64,000 nt of DNA from positions 1 to 64,000 of the IMG/VR virus record IMGVR_UViG_3300028874_000010. One strand, given 5' to 3'. The notes under the pieces are model-generated. The model worked only from the letters and a program-made list of their open reading frames with translations. It made no database searches and was not told where the DNA came from. A program made the translations under genes and the position numbers. Shown here piece after piece: positions 3,162 through 38,811 of the stretch. Origin of the DNA: a virus. Numbering within the stretch: the first letter of the stretch is position 1; each line of letters opens with the position of its first letter.

Positions 3162-3863
3162 ATGAAAGCTCTTCCATACGTTTACAAATTAGTACATAAA
3201 GAAACAGGCGAATTCTACATAGGTTTTAGATGTGCAAACAAAGTACCAGCAAATGAGGATTTGGGAATTAAATATTTTACTTCTTCAAAATTGGTTAAGA
3301 AAACATTTGAAAATTTTGAATGTTTTGTTTTAGGAGAATTTGAAGATAAAGATGCCGCATATACTTTTGAACAAAATCTTATCAAGGAGTGTTTTTCTAA
3401 TCCATTAATCCTAAACAAACATTGGCAAGATACTAAAACATATTCTATGCTAGGATTTAAGAGGCCAGATCTTGGAAAATTAAATTCTGAAATAAAAAGA
3501 AAACCAAAAGAATATAGAAATTATGATTGTGCTCAATGTGCTACGCCTTTGTCAAAATTAGAATTTATTCATCATAAGCCAAAGGAGCATTATTATTGCA
3601 ATGCTAAATGCCGAAATGAATTTAATAGAGGCCCATCAAAAAAAGGAATTAAGCTTCCGCATTTGTGGGGTAGGGCAGCTTGGAATAAAGGTTTGACTAA
3701 TCCAACTGCAGCAGAAAACGCAAGGAGAGGCGCAGAAAAACAACGCGAATTGGTAACCGGAAGAAAGAGACATTATATTTCAGAGACCGAATGGACCTGG
3801 AAATGTCAAGACAAAGATGGATGGTACATACGCCAAAACGGGGAACAAGTCCCCGTTTTGTGA
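3162..3863 (+). CDS. free-standing GIY-YIG homing endonuclease (Seg-like)
   Basis: PYVY...FYIG, YFTSS, conserved E and LN; C-terminal Cys cluster and AWNKG NUMOD-type motif; opposite strand to neighbours. Confidence 0.85.
   Translation: MKALPYVYKLVHKETGEFYIGFRCANKVPANEDLGIKYFTSSKLVKKTFENFECFVLGEFEDKDAAYTFEQNLIKECFSNPLILNKHWQDTKTYSMLGFKRPDLGKLNSEIKRKPKEYRNYDCAQCATPLSKLEFIHHKPKEHYYCNAKCRNEFNRGPSKKGIKLPHLWGRAAWNKGLTNPTAAENARRGAEKQRELVTGRKRHYISETEWTWKCQDKDGWYIRQNGEQVPVL
3834..3860 (-). terminator. intrinsic terminator downstream of tmRNA, overlapping the 3' end of the GIY-YIG ORF
   Basis: CAAAACGGGG-N7-CCCCGTTTTG, perfect 10-bp inverted repeat. Confidence 0.65.
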
Positions 3864-4210
3864 TCATTCTGTTTCTTGGCTGATCAGCCTCATGGGGATC
3901 ATGCCGCTAGGCGAGTCTCACCAAAGTAAGCATCATTTGCATTTGCTTTGTTTGCTTCATTTACGTCGATCGCCTGACGTGTTGTCTGCATCAATACTAA
4001 TCACCCAATCAAAACCTTGGCGAGCCCATCAGAAGAACCCAAACTCATATCGGTCGTTAGCTTGGTTTATTGCAATACCCGATCCATCTTAGCAAGACTT
4101 ACGTTATTGCACCAGTGAATATTCTAGAAATACTCACCTTAGGTTCTTCTGGTGGACTCGATGGGACTCGAACCCATGTCTTGAGCACCTTTCTATCAGC
4201 TTCATACAAC
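3861..4210 (-). ncRNA. ssrA: tmRNA, circularly permuted (two-piece) gene: acceptor piece ~4210-4150, intervening segment 4149-4028, coding piece 4027-~3861
   Basis: GAC-ATGGG-TTCGAGT-CCCAT-CGAGTCC-ACCA ends at 4150. GGGCTCG starting at 4027 pairs with it, including G3.U70. Tag frame 3940-3899 reads ANDAYFGETRLAA*. Confidence 0.92.
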
Positions 4211-4305
4211 AATAATAATGTTGACAGATTCTAATCGCGTATCTGTCTTGATTCACAAAGATATCGCGATTTAAGCTCTTTGTGAATCGCACTGCCAACA
4301 AATGA

Positions 4306-19416: not shown

Positions 19417-20184
19417 TCATTCTAAATTTAACCAAACTTTTCTTTTATCTGCTGATCCAGCACCTTTAGAAAAAGCTAAATCTATACTATCTGAATCCTC
19501 ATTTGATTCAATTGTAATTGGAATCAAATGGGTATCCATATCTTCTAGATATGATTTAAAGTCTTTTGCATCTGAAGTAGCCAAGCCTTTATACCATTTC
19601 TTTCTGTATTTTACTTCTTTATTCTTTACTTCCCATTCATCGAATTCATTTTCCGAATAGAAATTAATAATTTTTTTTGGTTTGTCAATGAATACACGAA
19701 CCAATGGTGTTCGAAACATATACACCATCCCAAGTTTAAATAGTTCTGGCCAGAATTTGTTGATCATATTAAATTCAAGACCGCGAATATGGAATCCATC
19801 TAAGTCTTGGTCTGACATGATAATTAACTTTCCAAATCTAAGATCTGAGACTGATTTGACTTCAACACCTAATCGGAGTCCCATTGCTCCCATGAAATTT
19901 TTAAACTCATCATTTTCGAGGAGACGTTTGACTGGAACATCATTAACGTTTAATGGTTTACCTTTGAGTGGGAATGATCCGATATACTTAGCATTCTTTT
20001 CGGTCTTAGCAGAAATAATAGCTTTAGCAGCAGAATTATGGGAGATCACACCCGATGAAAGAGTAAATGTGAAATCTTCATCTACTTCAATGTCAACGCC
20101 GTTTGTATGTTCGATATGTTCGATTGAGACAATATCAACGAGCTCAATAAGGCGCGGATCGAAATTATATTGTTGTGTTTGCAT
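19417..20184 (-). CDS. split-intein C-half (50 aa, 20184-20035) fused to the topoisomerase II large subunit C-terminal Toprim part
   Basis: VDIEVDEDFTF...ISHN|SA; FPLKGKPLN, DQDLDGFHI, YKGLA. Confidence 0.92.
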   Translation of the reverse strand: MQTQQYNFDPRLIELVDIVSIEHIEHTNGVDIEVDEDFTFTLSSGVISHNSAAKAIISAKTEKNAKYIGSFPLKGKPLNVNDVPVKRLLENDEFKNFMGAMGLRLGVEVKSVSDLRFGKLIIMSDQDLDGFHIRGLEFNMINKFWPELFKLGMVYMFRTPLVRVFIDKPKKIINFYSENEFDEWEVKNKEVKYRKKWYKGLATSDAKDFKSYLEDMDTHLIPITIESNEDSDSIDLAFSKGAGSADKRKVWLNLE

Positions 20185-21088
20185 TTAAAAGTTTTTCTTT
20201 GATTGTTAGTACTGTTTGCTCAAATTTTTTATAATCTTTACGACCGTGCAAAACCAAGCTTCCAAATTTTGATTTTTTCTCTTCGATTCTAACATTGTAC
20301 TTTTCATAGTTCATGCCAGCGATTTCTACATATTGATTAATTTTTGGAAAGTAGAAATCATACATCAATATACTACCTTCATAGAACCCGTTGGACTTTA
20401 CTTCCGAAGAAATGCCATACTTTTCCAGCAACGAATAGAAATATCGTTCGCCATTAGAATTCAATAGCATTCCGGTACTTGTTTCAGTAATGTATGAGTA
20501 TGCGGTTTTCTTTCCGTTTGCTGTTGTGCAATTTTTGAGTTTCGTCTGTGCAGCTCGTAACAAACCAGCTTGCACTTTATCTAAGCATCGTCCATAGAAT
20601 AAATTTGCTTGGTACTTTGTATAGTCTTCATAAGAATCATGGTTCTCGGCATAAAATGGGCTTGCGTTTCGTTCTCGTATAATTTTAAGTGTTTCTTCTT
20701 CTGACTCGATTGCTCTCGTCCTACTTACGAAGGCAACAGAATTTGGATTCAACTGCTTCCCATCACATTTATTCATGTGATTTGAGTAACAAAAGAAAAT
20801 AGGTTTCCTATATCCAACGCTGGTAACTGTTATTTCTTTTCCTTTTAACTCGTAGAGTGGAAACCATGTTGAGTTATGGTTTCCACAAAAACAGCAATCG
20901 ACTTTATCTGATCCAGTATTACTAAAGATATCAAACCGAGACTTTGTAATATGAAGCTTTAATGCCTGTTCAAAGCCTTTCTTGGTGTGGTGTGAAACCT
21001 TAATTACTTTATTTGTATTAGTCAGAAAAAATAATTTTTTGTTATTGAAAAAAGCAACAGAATCTTTTTTAATTATACGTGTAGCCAT
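20165..21088 (-). CDS. free-standing putative homing endonuclease (Zn-binding N-term, PD-(D/E)XK/Vsr-like C-term) between the split-intein halves
   Basis: CCFCG, SNGE...YDFYFP...YVEIAG; start reassigned to MATRII (GAAGGA SD). Confidence 0.7.
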   Translation of the reverse strand: MATRIIKKDSVAFFNNKKLFFLTNTNKVIKVSHHTKKGFEQALKLHITKSRFDIFSNTGSDKVDCCFCGNHNSTWFPLYELKGKEITVTSVGYRKPIFFCYSNHMNKCDGKQLNPNSVAFVSRTRAIESEEETLKIIRERNASPFYAENHDSYEDYTKYQANLFYGRCLDKVQAGLLRAAQTKLKNCTTANGKKTAYSYITETSTGMLLNSNGERYFYSLLEKYGISSEVKSNGFYEGSILMYDFYFPKINQYVEIAGMNYEKYNVRIEEKKSKFGSLVLHGRKDYKKFEQTVLTIKEKLLNANTTI

Positions 21089-21092
21089 CAGA

Positions 21093-21132
21093 GATCCTTC
21101 AGTGATAAACATCTATTTATCACTGAAGGATC
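21093..21132 (-). promoter_or_regulatory. 17-bp hairpin sequestering the endonuclease SD, with an embedded late promoter
   Basis: GATCCTTCAGTGATAAA-tagatg-TTTATCACTGAAGGATC; GATAAATA at 21121-21114. Confidence 0.75.
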
Positions 21133-21139
21133 AAACGAC

Positions 21140-22912
21140 TTAGAAAAGCACCAATGAATGTTTATCAGTATTCAAGTTCTCGCACGATACCAAACAAAAG
21201 GATCCGGTAGAGCGATCCCAGACATAGAACTTATGGTCCATCGTACTGTTGATAAGACCGATATATTCTATATCCAAGTGAAGATCATATTTTTCATCTT
21301 CAATCCGAGTTACTGATTTGATAGCACCAAGAGCAATAGTGTCTGCCAGACGATTTTTCACAAGCGCATGTACAGAACTATCCAAGTCCTTAGCACGCAC
21401 TTCTAGGAACGTTTTAGTCGTCTTATCGTAAGCAATCAAACGGTGTTCTGGGGATACAATATGTTCGATATCACCACACTTGATCTTCACTCCTTCGATC
21501 ACTTTTTTACTAATGCCGAGAATCTTCCTGAGGCGGTTATTATGCGTAAGAATTAAATCTCCAACATTTACGTCTTTAATTTTTACATCGAAGAATTGCT
21601 CATTTTCATAAACTATGATTTGTTCATCTTCGTGAATTGTGTCACCTTCTGTAATAAACAGCAAACATTTACTACGGTCTTTTTTTTCTGTTGCATCGCA
21701 GAACTTTGGAATCCGATTTGGATTCATCTTATCTGTTTCTTTATTTAGTTCTCGTTCTTTAGCTCGTTCAGCCGCTTCAACTTTCATTTCAACCCAATCT
21801 AACACCGATTGAATGATATCAGATTTTGTTAATTTGAGAACCATTTTATCGGTGACTTCAAATGAGGTCCCAAAATTTCTAATTTCTGTAATCAGTTCTT
21901 CTTTTGTTTGGGACGAATATCTGGGTTTGATAATTGTTGCATCAACAAATAGTTGAAGATGATTTAAAATTTCTGATGGCTTGACATCAATTTTATGTTT
22001 CTTATTGAAGTAAGCTCGAAGTTTTGTTGTGATCTGTTCTTGGAGGTATTTGATATGAACACCGCCAAGAGTTGTTTCAGTTGTATTTACGAACGAGACA
22101 TGTTTGAATCCATCTGACTTAGCAATACCAATACGCCAATGATCATTTTCTTCAAAGACATAATCCTGTGTGTAGAACTCAATGTAATCTTTAAATGACT
22201 TGATTTTGATTTGCTTTTTATTTAGGTAAATCTTTAGAGTTGGATTGCAACCAGCAATATCATAAACCCGTTTAATCAGCTTTTCATAATTTCCTTGATC
22301 TAATGAAGTCATACCAAGTTTTTGGTAATCAGGAAGATATGTAATTTTTGTGTATTTTTCTGTGCTTGTTTTAATCTTTGGTTCTGATCTAACCCGGGAA
22401 TTTTCTGTGTGTTTTTGTTCAAATTCCTTTTTGCCATCGCCTGTTTTAACAATGAAATATTGACTGAAAATATTTGTCAATGCCGCACCTTCGCCGTTTT
22501 GACCTGTCAATGTTGAGTCATCATCATCATCAAAATTACTTCCTGCTCGCAATTCAAAAATGTATTCAGGGATGTATTGGTCATATTCTGGGTTCTTGAT
22601 AACTGCAATACCACCATCATCAAGAACCGATATCTCTCCTGTTACTTGATTGATATCAACTTTAATAGTAGAGAGGTGTTGACCTTCTTTTGTTTTTGAG
22701 AAGTCTACTGAATTAGAAATAACTTCGTCAAACATTTTAATAAATCCGGGACACCAGGTCAATTCCTTTTCGGCCATACGTTGTTCTACTTCATCTACGT
22801 AATAGGTGGCCGCTGTGTGAGCCGTAATGCTTCCTAGGTATCTGCCTGGTCTGAGAAGGACATGGGAGATCTCGTCAAGCTTTTTGTGCTTGAATATTTG
22901 TTTTGTTGTCAT
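21140..22912 (-). CDS. 39: topoisomerase II large subunit N-terminal part (gp39 ATPase, 424 aa) fused to split-intein N-half (21640-21143)
   Basis: HVLLRPGRYLGS, EVISNSVD, GQNGEGA, SQTKE, ITEGD followed by a Hint-like sequence (VGDLILTH, SPEH). Confidence 0.92.
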   Translation of the reverse strand: MTTKQIFKHKKLDEISHVLLRPGRYLGSITAHTAATYYVDEVEQRMAEKELTWCPGFIKMFDEVISNSVDFSKTKEGQHLSTIKVDINQVTGEISVLDDGGIAVIKNPEYDQYIPEYIFELRAGSNFDDDDDSTLTGQNGEGAALTNIFSQYFIVKTGDGKKEFEQKHTENSRVRSEPKIKTSTEKYTKITYLPDYQKLGMTSLDQGNYEKLIKRVYDIAGCNPTLKIYLNKKQIKIKSFKDYIEFYTQDYVFEENDHWRIGIAKSDGFKHVSFVNTTETTLGGVHIKYLQEQITTKLRAYFNKKHKIDVKPSEILNHLQLFVDATIIKPRYSSQTKEELITEIRNFGTSFEVTDKMVLKLTKSDIIQSVLDWVEMKVEAAERAKERELNKETDKMNPNRIPKFCDATEKKDRSKCLLFITEGDTIHEDEQIIVYENEQFFDVKIKDVNVGDLILTHNNRLRKILGISKKVIEGVKIKCGDIEHIVSPEHRLIAYDKTTKTFLEVRAKDLDSSVHALVKNRLADTIALGAIKSVTRIEDEKYDLHLDIEYIGLINSTMDHKFYVWDRSTGSFCLVSCENLNTDKHSLVLF

Positions 22913-22929
22913 TTGATTTCGAATTACTG

Positions 22930-23290
22930 TTATGACATATCCAAAAACGGATATGAATTTCTATTTATGGAGATATTGTACAATGAATATTTAGGTGTTG
23001 ACCTGGAAATAAAACAACAAAAGATTTTCCTGAATTCGTAATCGCCGCGCTTTTAGCGATTACAAATTCCTTGTATGGTGTCAACCATACAATATTGAGT
23101 GATAATTCTTCTATGGGATTTGTCTTTTTATTTACTACCAATTTTAATCACTACGCGTTGCTTCGTGCTTAAAAATATTAATTTAGGCGGTAAGCAAACG
23201 AGTTGCTTCTCCTAAATTAATATTTTTCGATCTCTTTTTCTTTTTTATTTAATTAAGAGACATATAGTATTAATTATGGATCCTCTTTTT
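22930..23290. other. non-coding hairpin-rich region, possible replication origin
   Basis: Inverted repeats at ~23032-23069, ~23071-23092, ~23171-23227; GCACGAAGC/GCGTAG-type motifs; A/T tracts. Confidence 0.35.
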
Positions 23291-23700
23291 CGATTCTCTG
23301 GATGCCCTGGCGCCTTTCGGCGCAACAACTATAACTTTGATGTAAAGCTACAGTAAGTTCACATTTCAGAGCGATGTTTTGCTCAACTCGTCCAGGTACT
23401 GCTTTACCGAGATTTATGTGGTCTGCATTCAGCGACGCTTACCCGCATTTGTTATTACTTACAATTCACAAATGCGCACAATTTTTAATTGTTCTGGAAA
23501 AATTTATAATTTAATATAAACCAAGCGATTAGTATACGGACATTTTACTAATTCTTCACGACGATGACTATCTATGCCTATCACGTACTTGTTGTTTAAA
23601 AAAGTACATCGGTATTACCCAATGCTGATCTTTTTAGAGTGTCTTTGCTAATGACTTCGCAGACCTCGGGCGCCTATATGGATATGCATATAGGCATGTA
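23290..23700 (-). ncRNA. candidate ~400-nt multi-domain structured RNA
   Basis: Nested long-range helices, a GAAA tetraloop and G.U pairs on the minus strand; no ORF of 60 aa or more. Confidence 0.55.
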
Positions 23701-23704
23701 TTTT

Positions 23705-24388
23705 TTAATTGAAAAAAGATTTAAAAAGTTCTTCTTTTGAAATTGAGCATTTTGTACTCTTCTTTAGATTTTCATATTTTGGAATCATTTCTAAATTACA
23801 TATATTACCTATAATATAGGCTGGAATCTTATTTTTAAATCCCTCATAAATTGAAAATCTATGATCTAGATGAAAAGCATCCCAATCATTCCCTCTTAAT
23901 TCTATATTGTTTAATTTTTGGACATCTGTAATGGACCAAACTATTTCACAATATTTTTTAAAATCCTTAAGATTATGAGCTTCTATTTTATTGCATTTTA
24001 TAATTTGATACGTATCATAACATGTTTTAGAACAAAAATCAGAATATCCTATTTTTATGTTTTTAAATTTTCTTGTTCTCTTAACACATTGACAGCATAT
24101 AAAATTTGATGGAGTAGTTTCAAATACATGATTGTATAATTTTTCTTCTTCAGTTTTACCAAGCTGTAAAGATTTAATATAAACAGAAAATTTTGGTATC
24201 TTCTTATAAAATTTATAGATATCTACTATATTATTATGGTTGCTTTTGATAAGATCTTTGATTGCGTCTTTTAATTTATTGCTATCAAATTCATTTTTAT
24301 TGATGTAATTTGCATACTCAACGTATTTTTTTAATTTATACTCTTTTTGTTTTATTTCTTCTATTTCAACTGTTTTTTTAGTTGACAT
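23705..24388 (-). CDS. HNH endonuclease with Zn-finger
   Basis: CCQC...FCSKTC; HLDHRFS...NLEMIPKYENLKK. Confidence 0.8.
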   Translation of the reverse strand: MSTKKTVEIEEIKQKEYKLKKYVEYANYINKNEFDSNKLKDAIKDLIKSNHNNIVDIYKFYKKIPKFSVYIKSLQLGKTEEEKLYNHVFETTPSNFICCQCVKRTRKFKNIKIGYSDFCSKTCYDTYQIIKCNKIEAHNLKDFKKYCEIVWSITDVQKLNNIELRGNDWDAFHLDHRFSIYEGFKNKIPAYIIGNICNLEMIPKYENLKKSTKCSISKEELFKSFFN

Positions 24389-24396
24389 AATAATTC

Positions 24397-24495
24397 TTAA
24401 AATATAACTAATACTAAAGCAACTACACTCGTGGTTACTAGTATGCCAATCATAAATCCTATATAACCAATCATGTATAGTTCATAAATGCTCAT
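24397..24495 (-). CDS. small membrane peptide (32 aa)
   Basis: Hand translation MSIYELYMIGYIGFMIGILVTTSVVALVLVIF; ATGA coupling. Confidence 0.4.
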   Translation of the reverse strand: MSIYELYMIGYIGFMIGILVTTSVVALVLVIF

Positions 24496-24905
24496 ATTAG
24501 TTCCAAATGATTATATCCATCTCTTGAAGTATAATAGATATGTTTGATACCTCGGTCTTTTATAGCTCTCATACATGCCCCACAAGGTTTTGAATCAGCT
24601 ATGGCTCCGGTCAAATCTTCTCTATACACATAGATAGAACTGCCGGTAAGGTCGGTTCTACCAGCTTTAATGATAGCATCCATTTCTGCGTGTGTCCGAC
24701 CTGCATCCGTTTCTACATCTCTAATGTTTATATATCGGTATTTTGAGTACCGTTTTTGTTTGGTGTGTGTCCGCCATCGATTGACACCAGTAGAAACGAG
24801 TTGGCGCCCAATGACTATTGTAGCACCTATATGTGTTCTTGGATATGTTGATGTTTTTGAAGCGACACTAGCCAAACGAAAGAATCGTTTGTTAGTTTTT
24901 GTCAT
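24492..24905 (-). CDS. CMP/dCMP-type zinc-dependent deaminase
   Basis: HAE and PCGAC motifs. Confidence 0.85.
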   Translation of the reverse strand: MTKTNKRFFRLASVASKTSTYPRTHIGATIVIGRQLVSTGVNRWRTHTKQKRYSKYRYINIRDVETDAGRTHAEMDAIIKAGRTDLTGSSIYVYREDLTGAIADSKPCGACMRAIKDRGIKHIYYTSRDGYNHLELI

Positions 24906-37677: not shown

Positions 37678-37870
37678 TGATAGGATCCAGAAATCCTACA
37701 GAGTCATGCCCAAACTTTGCACTTTCTATAACCATAATATTTCCGATACTATTTGAACCTATCAAATAGTCATCAGGAAAATTAAATGTTTCTAACATTT
37801 CTTTAATACACTTGATGGTGACACATCTAAATGCAGGCATTCCATTTGAATCATTGAGTATCATATTCAT
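37646..37870 (-). CDS. hypothetical protein
   Basis: ORF track. Confidence 0.45.
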   Translation of the reverse strand: MNMILNDSNGMPAFRCVTIKCIKEMLETFNFPDDYLIGSNSIGNIMVIESAKFGHDSVGFLDPISEKFICFDNM

Positions 37871-38801
37871 CTACCAGTTTAGGAATTCCGTTGATTAAAC
37901 GGAATAGATTTGTTTTATCAAACTTTGGTAAAGCTTCAGCAAAAGCTTTCCAAATATCCTGGTTCTCATTAGTTCGACCCCAGTTTTTAGTAATATCTAA
38001 ATTCTGAGATTTTGCCATCACCTCTAGTTCTTCACAAATCAATTCCCAATGCTCAATGAACTTTGGTGTATTAGAAGTAGCACAATGAGCCAAGAAAAAA
38101 GCTGTCGCGAATAAAACCACTGAAGCCATTTCATTTATAGGCAGCTCTAGGGTCCGGAGTTCGATTCCTATGACCTTACCAAGTTGAAGAGGTATAACAT
38201 CATCAGACCATCGTTCGCGCAATCCGGCGCGCCCCTTACGTCCCCAGGACATAACTTTTTTAGAGTTTAATACTTCACTAATTCGTCTAGGAGAAGTAAA
38301 TCCAATGACTTCTAGAGCCATGAGAATCATCCCGGCTTTTTTGCCAAGCCCAAGACCGCCAAGTGTGATATGAAGCGAATGCTTATGATTCGTTGGAATA
38401 GCACCAATTCGGCGAAGTAGTTCGACTTCATACGCGAGGACCGCGGGGTTGTAGCATGGTTCAAACGCAAACTCGTAGTACTTGTCCTTGCCTTTTGGGA
38501 TTCCGCATTGCTCAGTAAGCTTCAAACGTGGAGTTAAATGCTCCTCTTCCCTAGAACAATGGTTCGTCAAAAGCTGTTTTGATCTATCCGATAGTTCAGA
38601 GTAAGGAGTATTCTTCAAATAGACTTCATACAAATGTGGAAAATAATGACGCCACCGAACTTCAACCTCTGCACCAATAGTGACACAATCACTTTCAGTA
38701 TAGAGGTCTTCGATGTATTGCATTTGGGTAATATTCTGTTCTGGAATTTCACCAAGCTCTGGAAAGGCATTGAACAGGTTGCGAATCGCGTCAGTTCTCA
38801 T
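37851..38801 (-). CDS. putative amidoligase (COOH-NH2 ligase fold)
   Basis: IGAEVEV, YEF..P, SLHIT, IELR; start reassigned to MRTDAI. Confidence 0.6.
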   Translation of the reverse strand: MRTDAIRNLFNAFPELGEIPEQNITQMQYIEDLYTESDCVTIGAEVEVRWRHYFPHLYEVYLKNTPYSELSDRSKQLLTNHCSREEEHLTPRLKLTEQCGIPKGKDKYYEFAFEPCYNPAVLAYEVELLRRIGAIPTNHKHSLHITLGGLGLGKKAGMILMALEVIGFTSPRRISEVLNSKKVMSWGRKGRAGLRERWSDDVIPLQLGKVIGIELRTLELPINEMASVVLFATAFFLAHCATSNTPKFIEHWELICEELEVMAKSQNLDITKNWGRTNENQDIWKAFAEALPKFDKTNLFRLINGIPKLVDEYDTQ

Positions 38802-38811
38802 TATATATGTT

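Follow-up and report, generated by a model that had tools for sequence, protein, structure and literature searches.

Analysis of a 64,000-nucleotide (nt) stretch of viral DNA (positions 1 to 64,000 of IMG/VR record IMGVR_UViG_3300028874_000010; hereafter, the window) pointed to a large noncoding RNA (ncRNA) encoded in a gap without open reading frames (ORFs). The gap comprises 792 nt (22913-23704) and lies on the minus-strand gene array of a jumbo-phage fragment. Comparison with three other phages showed the gap to hold what is predicted to be a structured ncRNA that is independent and acts in trans; it lies on the minus strand and is roughly 650 nt long. The comparison also showed that this RNA belongs, as judged by its homologs, to a small family in RsoM2USA-like T4-type jumbo phages. 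That the RNA is real and conserved seems to us very likely. The reading that we favor overall, and regard as likely, is that of a large jumbo-phage ncRNA resembling the orphan RNA family EGFOA (Rfam RF02955) and separate from the neighboring HNH-like nuclease gene. An original prediction, made from the letters of the stretch, had already proposed that the minus strand encodes a large structured ncRNA of several domains, and comparative evidence supports that proposal.

The minus strand of the gap was found to contain no ORF of at least 40 amino acids (aa), and tblastx gave no signal there. Pairwise alignment with an uncultured phage, termed phage B, revealed homology that starts at about 23667 and reaches a terminal hairpin near 23040. 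The RNA was initially taken to be about 400 nt long and to end at 23290; however, conserved hairpins and homology extend past that position to a terminator-like hairpin at about 23070-23031, giving a length of about 650 nt. Assignment to the minus strand is backed by G.U pairs and by the orientation of the RNA in all relatives. Fold stability alone is weak evidence for a structured RNA. The fold z-score of -3.9 was equal on both strands, and the exact stretch was, by our own estimate from a fit, only about 2 standard deviations (sd) more stable than expected when compared with 400-nt windows of the same genome. Contigs of four DNA runs contained neither a variant within the RNA nor a form without the HNH-like gene. 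A functionless set of chance hairpins, or a decayed coding sequence, would fit this modest excess of stability and the clonal population in the four metagenomes, which yields no within-species signal; this explanation can hardly be credited, however, when four divergent phages keep 14 helices via compensatory changes and no similarity is seen at the protein level.

Searches for relatives by sequence similarity failed at first. The gap sequence had no blastn match among GenBank phages, and the phage-B version gave spurious short blastn stretches only. An exact 18-mer of the GNRA hairpin matched three IMG/VR contigs, which are identical over the region and represent phage B; two covariance models built from the single window sequence gave 53 and 77.7 bits for phage B (E about 1e-13). 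The nearest GenBank relative of phage B is Ralstonia phage RsoM2USA (gp46 at 40.6% aa identity). At the syntenic place in RsoM2USA, a 1.4-kb unannotated gap contains a third version of the RNA, detected at 34.7 bits with a single-sequence model; a three-sequence model gave 131 bits, but RsoM2USA's own sequence is in that alignment, and 34.7 bits is therefore the independent detection. The RsoM2USA genome paper makes no mention of an RNA at this locus. A fourth version was found in a complete 360-kb IMG/VR phage, at 31.1 bits (E 1e-4 per genome) with the three-sequence model. The window fragment and the phage B fragment share no ORF, and protein divergence offers no yardstick for the conservation of the RNA.

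Another 70-odd related records yielded no copy, among them those of BUDD, X1, XacN1, Xoo-sp13, CM1, and three huge uncultured phages. In BUDD and X1, neither BLAST nor a covariance model found the RNA, and the gap upstream of the topoisomerase gene is just 240 nt. At 80 IMG/VR topoisomerase II loci, no similarity was detected by nhmmer, blastn, or tblastx, and synteny was not kept. A second copy was not found in the 112-kb record from which the window is taken. Two more gapped patterns searched in IMG/VR matched phage B alone, and the same gapped pattern in prokaryote genomes gave 29 matches, all of which were chance according to the covariance models. Two other candidates were rejected, G022 (21.9 bits, lacking P9 and P12; Table 1) and G049 (17 bits). 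As a separate observation, about 550 nt of the 1.4-kb gap in RsoM2USA remain beyond the RNA terminator (MG752970.1, about 252,476-253,025; L130 10160-10709 in local numbering), and this remainder contains a GC-rich, bidirectional terminator-like hairpin near L130 10448-10472.

Secondary structure was then compared among the window, phage B, RsoM2USA, and the 360-kb phage, with every helix located by coordinates in each of the four sequences. As shown in Table 1, the comparison supports a predicted layout consisting of a variable 5' domain, a doubly pseudoknotted core, and a 3' extension with A-rich-loop and terminator-like hairpins. The 14 helices pair in all four phages despite differing sequences. 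In the core, 92.6% of cells were paired in a model-based alignment (A10; 22-49% in slid controls), with 7 compensatory pairs, and 96.8% were paired in a MAFFT alignment that included the pseudoknot (A11; 22-42% in slid controls), with 8 compensatory pairs; none of 500 shuffles reached the observed values in either alignment, although such counts on related sequences are not probabilities. In the first pseudoknot, a CCNAG element located upstream of P5 pairs with the loop of P9, and all five pairs form in each phage (UCCAG/CUGGA, CCUAG/CUAGG, UCCAG/CUGGA, and CCCAG/CUGGG), two of them covarying. An alternative pairing of CUGGA with a UCCAG in the 3' tail was only 67% paired and was dropped in favor of the CCNAG element. 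The stem of P9 reads CUCG/CGAG in the window and CCUG/CAGG, CCG/CGG, or CCAG/CUGG in the relatives; likewise, the stem of P10 varies as GAGC/GCUC, GAA/UUC, GAAG/CUUC, and GGAC/GUCC. The second pseudoknot can arise when the 5' arm GUCUGC (23664-23659) of the 5' hairpin pairs instead with GCAGAC at 23426-23421, forming a long-range helix that crosses the first pseudoknot. This helix had been part of the original prediction; all four phages retain it, with substitutions in both strands, including three different pair types at one position. The conserved parts of the RNA are its loops and junctions, namely the P4 loop AAUGUCC, the 17-nt P9 loop, the A-rich P14 loop, and the loop of the 5' hairpin. 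P11 measures 11 base pairs (bp) in the window and 7, 5, and 5 bp in the other phages; in P12, the stem is invariant and the loops differ. In the relatives, a U run follows the terminal hairpin.

Table 1. Features of the ncRNA locus and neighboring genes (window coordinates).
Feature	Position	Strand	Remarks
ncRNA gene, whole	23020..23700	minus	about 650-680 nt; ends predicted; from ORF-free gap, homology to phage B, and helices kept in 4 phages
9-bp hairpin directly after HNH-like ORF	23672..23695	minus	looks like a plus-strand terminator
5' hairpin, conserved loop (GAAGUCAUUAGC type)	23641..23664	minus	
Hairpin then U6 run, terminator-like	23606..23625	minus	inside 5' domain; no counterpart in phage B
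P4 hairpin, conserved loop AAUGUCC	23528..23552	minus	stems differ, loop kept in 4 phages
EGFOA-like pseudoknotted core (pseudoknot 5' strand, P5-P10)	23360..23498	minus	A11 pairing counts; sub-threshold RF02955 matches fall here
Pseudoknot 5' strand UCCAG	23494..23498	minus	pairs with 23391-23395; counterpart of EGFOA consensus 5' CCcAG
P5	23492-23487 with 23483-23478	minus	stem sequence differs in 4/4 phages, all pair
P6, 9 bp	23476-23468 with 23452-23444	minus	7-9 bp, four unrelated sequences in four phages
P7 hairpin	23438-23435 with 23428-23425	minus	region 23421..23438 also holds long-range 3' strand 23426-23421
P8	23420-23416 with 23364-23360	minus	encloses P9 and P10; two covarying pairs
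P9 hairpin, 4-bp stem and 17-nt conserved loop GUAAAGCAGUACCUGGA	23387..23411	minus	loop holds pseudoknot 3' strand 23391-23395
P10 hairpin	23384-23381 with 23372-23369	minus	two to three covarying pairs
P11 (variable hairpin) and P12 (GCGCC-GAAA-GGCGC)	23310..23354	minus	
P14 hairpin, A-rich loop (AAAAAAGAAA type)	23231..23260	minus	stems differ, A-rich loop kept in 4 phages
Terminal hairpin (core 23063-23056 with 23045-23038), then U-rich tract	23031..23070	minus	probable 3' end
HNH-like ORF, 227 aa	23705..24388	minus	low GC; phrog_5104; probable free-standing homing endonuclease
Membrane-like ORF, 32 codons	beside dCMP deaminase and 227-aa ORF	minus	
Deoxycytidine monophosphate (dCMP) deaminase	24492-24905	minus	neighbor gene
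Topoisomerase II large subunit, N-terminal part	21140..22912	minus	downstream of RNA; phrog_543, E 1e-104

The architecture drawn in the original prediction was retained in part. The individual hairpins are present where it placed them, and most of the local ones checked had pair probabilities above 0.85: those at 23695-23672, CAUUGG/CCGAUG, ACAAUU/AAUUGU, the 9-bp CGCAUUUGU stem, the 11-bp stem with two G.U pairs, and GCGCC-GAAA-GGCGC (GAGC/GCUC reached 0.76). However, its full architecture had an energy of -66.6 kcal/mol, compared with -116.4 for the minimum free energy fold, and its long-range helices had pair probabilities of 0 to 0.24. Three of the four long-range helices (CCGAG/CUCGG, CGCUU/AAGCG, and CCUGG/CCAGG) are not kept in the relatives; CUCG pairs instead with the downstream CGAG to form P9, with compensatory changes. 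We also observed a TATAAAT-like element, similar to a T4 late promoter, at 23503-23510, just upstream of the pseudoknot 5' strand. It occurs in all four phages at variable spacing and may be a late promoter lying inside the RNA gene; alternatively, it may be conserved as a single-stranded element.

The relationship of the core to EGFOA emerged from searches with Rfam models. At gathering thresholds, Infernal found nothing at the locus; at E values up to 10, one 25-nt EGFOA match was obtained at 23387-23411, which is exactly the P9 hairpin. Rfam intron and HEARO models were unmatched at E up to 10, in agreement with the original prediction, in which no such signatures had been recognized. RF02955 has 108 model positions and a gathering score of 37.7 bits. 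Over 46 phage records it matched only the loci described here, apart from one 7.9-bit match, scoring 27.3 bits in the 360-kb phage and 24.7 bits in phage B (both over the full model), and 16.9 bits in the window. These matches span the CCNAG element and the GUAAAGC...ACCUGG loop. Moreover, three features of the printed EGFOA consensus recur in these RNAs, namely uuuCCcAG on the 5' side, a hairpin with the loop GUAAAGCUAGACCUgGG, and, ahead of that hairpin, another small one. Judged by such shared motifs, the core is an enlarged and divergent relative of this orphan family; a true relationship to EGFOA is, in our judgment, quite probable even though the core fails the family score threshold. 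The original prediction called the RNA undescribed; this does not wholly hold, as its core resembles EGFOA.

The gene context of the RNA was compared next. In phage B, RsoM2USA, and the 360-kb phage, the RNA follows the same order of genes (late sigma factor, gp47, gp46, a RusA-like gene, and one or two small ORFs), and beyond the RNA lies a convergent baseplate-hub gene on the other strand. None of these three phages has an HNH-like gene beside the RNA. Because the RNA occurs in relatives without an HNH-like neighbor and with the downstream gene on the other strand, it is neither a nuclease partner nor a topoisomerase II leader. The first of these roles, in which the RNA would guide or partner the HNH-like nuclease encoded next to it, had been proposed initially and would resemble HEARO, the omega RNA of IscB. 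In the window, the structured RNA does adjoin an HNH-type gene, beginning immediately downstream of it on the same strand. Nevertheless, the original prediction had itself singled out relatives lacking the gene as the finding that refutes a partnership, and three such relatives are now at hand. The GC content of the ORF is also foreign (0.22-0.25, versus 0.34-0.43 in neighboring DNA), its database homologs share only the C-terminal 35-40% of the protein, and it has no RuvC domain; together with the lack of a HEARO match, this leaves the nuclease-partner explanation scarcely believable.

The HNH label itself was examined. The 227-aa ORF matched nothing in Pfam, NCBIfam, or PDB sequences. It does contain an invariant motif (H173-x-D175-H176...N198-L199...N207...K210), its C-terminal domain was modeled with a predicted local distance difference test score (pLDDT) of 80-88, and its weak Foldseek rows (E of 1 or more) were enriched in Cas9-HNH, colicin E7, ScoMcrA, and I-HmuI. 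The label is weakly supported, by this motif and these fold matches. We infer that the HNH-like gene codes for a mobile endonuclease with no relation to the RNA, inserted next to a conserved gene. As a separate observation on such elements, the portal gene of phage B (977 aa; L088 6627-9560) contains an internal HNH-endonuclease-like segment at residues about 413-633, which suggests an intein or inserted endonuclease.

Two cis-acting or replicative roles were also weighed. A leader of topoisomerase II, or a 3' untranslated region or terminator region of the upstream gene, might be expected from the fact that the RNA is on the same strand as both neighbors, with its terminal hairpin only about 110 nt from the topoisomerase start. 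Such a role is very improbable, in that the downstream gene in the three relatives is convergent and unrelated, the upstream genes differ, and the relatives' topoisomerase II genes are preceded by gaps of 60-320 nt that lack the RNA. A primer or origin RNA, in the manner of ColE1 RNA II (as the original prediction had suggested) or of the T4 oriF/oriG-type R-loop transcripts, would accord with the AT-rich tracts and hairpins downstream at 23290-23170 and with the position of the relatives' RNA at the boundary of convergent gene blocks. However, conservation here concerns a pseudoknotted fold, with its compensatory changes and its loops, rather than an AT-rich element for unwinding, and such a pattern is unexpected for an R-loop primer; moreover, iterons or repeats were not found, and the genome position differs between the window and the relatives. 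The proposal thus found no support, and we consider it highly unlikely. A group I intron was rejected, as both the flanking dCMP deaminase and the N terminus of topoisomerase II are complete and the Rfam intron models were unmatched.

As to what the RNA might do, cryo-electron microscopy of two canonical EGFOA members revealed oligomers, and these RNAs self-assemble in vitro into trimers or strand-swapped dimers (bioRxiv 10.64898/2026.07.01.735769). By analogy, the EGFOA-like core would allow the RNA described here to oligomerize, and the conserved peripheral loops may be where phage or host factors bind in the course of infection. We put forward this model, a trans-acting RNA whose core would drive self-assembly and whose conserved loops would bind partners, as a tentative possibility. 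The main alternative to a scaffold is a new ribozyme that either processes itself or acts in trans. Large size, pseudoknots, and conserved junction and loop nucleotides are hallmarks common to large ribozymes, and this RNA is large, has two pseudoknots, and keeps its junction and loop nucleotides highly conserved. On the other hand, known ribozyme families were unmatched even at E up to 10, a candidate substrate or cleavage site is not evident, and the solved EGFOA structures were described as assemblies, not catalysts (bioRxiv 10.64898/2026.07.01.735769), such that we regard a ribozyme as rather improbable.

Several points count against a large EGFOA-like ncRNA that is independent of its neighbors and acts as a scaffold. 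The RNA and both of its ends are predicted from sequence, and only four distinct sequences are available, which makes the covariation statistics thin. The window copy is in a different genomic place from the other three, and it contains the internal terminator-like hairpin (23625-23606), which could truncate transcripts from the HNH-like gene. XacN1, said to be a clade-mate of RsoM2USA, gave no model match and has no gap downstream of gp46. All RF02955 scores lie under the 37.7-bit cut-off, and RsoM2USA has no match to that model. The EGFOA consensus has an 8-bp closing helix placed directly after UaaA and enclosing only two hairpins, whereas here there are a 5-bp P8 and an extra P10, with a three-way junction in place of the closing helix. 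Lastly, the oligomer-scaffold mechanism is drawn purely by analogy.

With respect to its genomic setting, the window is the first 64 kb of the 112-kb record, the completeness of which is estimated at one-third, and near-identical DNA is present in many peat metagenomes and one lake metagenome. All genes around the locus are on the minus strand. By topoisomerase II, the nearest GenBank phages are Xanthomonas phages BUDD and X1 (58% aa identity) and RsoM2USA (47%). Closer topoisomerase II relatives exist (85%, 82%, and 79% identity), and their loci were not returned by two metagenome scans, one viral scan, and one genome-contig scan. The topoisomerase II large subunit gene is split within 19417-22912 into an N part (21140-22912) and a C part (19417-20184), with an unassigned 315-aa ORF (20165-21112) between them; the N part has about 166 extra C-terminal residues, and the relatives have a single protein of 628-631 aa. 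The phage also encodes a permuted (two-piece) transfer-messenger RNA of beta-proteobacterial type at window positions 3834-4269, and this type fits a Ralstonia-like host clade. Further long ORF-free gaps of 0.7-1.5 kb occur in the window (37678-38811) and in the 112-kb record (82156-83678, 97563-98295, and 101953-103201) and may contain further ncRNAs or clusters of transfer RNAs. The most stable fold of the genome is in a segment starting at 83201 of the 112-kb record (-4 sd, minus strand).

Few ncRNAs of unknown function are both large and ornate, and EGFOA has been without a known role or a named host. The present analysis assigns an enlarged RNA of EGFOA type to T4-like jumbo phages and provides, by comparison, a secondary structure that includes two pseudoknots. 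It also does away with an appealing but mistaken link of the RNA to an HNH-like nuclease. Experiments are feasible at once, as one carrier, RsoM2USA, is cultured and has the RNA in its unannotated gap. It is unlikely, but would be of consequence, that the RNA proves to be a self-assembling phage RNA machine, with a core that oligomerizes and loops that recruit components, or else a new large ribozyme; either would be the first biological role for EGFOA, and could be tested in the RsoM2USA/Ralstonia pair.

Finally, the locus was compared with known systems. T4-type phages carry free-standing homing endonucleases, the seg and mob genes. The low-GC, endonuclease-like ORF here is similarly inserted between conserved genes, and the topoisomerase gene, at a distance of 2 kb, is divided by a second mobile insertion; the ORF differs in that the 227-aa protein matches no curated HNH profile, and its target site and nuclease activity are putative. 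Among RNAs, ROOL, GOLLD, and OLE are large bacterial or phage ncRNAs of unknown function for which self-assembly into multimers has been reported. The RNA described here is comparable to them in size class (500-800 nt) and ornate fold, and ROOL and GOLLD are phage-borne as well; multimers are only inferred for the RNA here, no Rfam match to these families was seen even at E up to 10, and no shared motifs were seen. The closest likeness is to EGFOA. EGFOA RNAs are small, at about 100-200 nt; compared with the 108 positions of the EGFOA model, the RNA here is about six times longer (about 650 nt). Its CCNAG element is separated from the core by two or three additional hairpins (P5-P7), its 5' domain contributes a second long-range helix, and it has a 3' extension of about 270 nt. 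In both, the 5' CCNAG element is complementary to CUNGG in a hairpin loop, the corresponding elements of the EGFOA consensus being complementary too. Both have a hairpin with the 17-nt loop GUAAAGC...ACCUGG, here P9, of which the loop is conserved and the stem covaries, and the optional small hairpin of EGFOA before the loop hairpin is present in the 360-kb phage. EGFOA RNAs were described as putative small RNAs in unusually large gene-free regions (bioRxiv 10.64898/2026.07.01.735769), and the gaps that contain the RNA in the window and in RsoM2USA are of the same kind.

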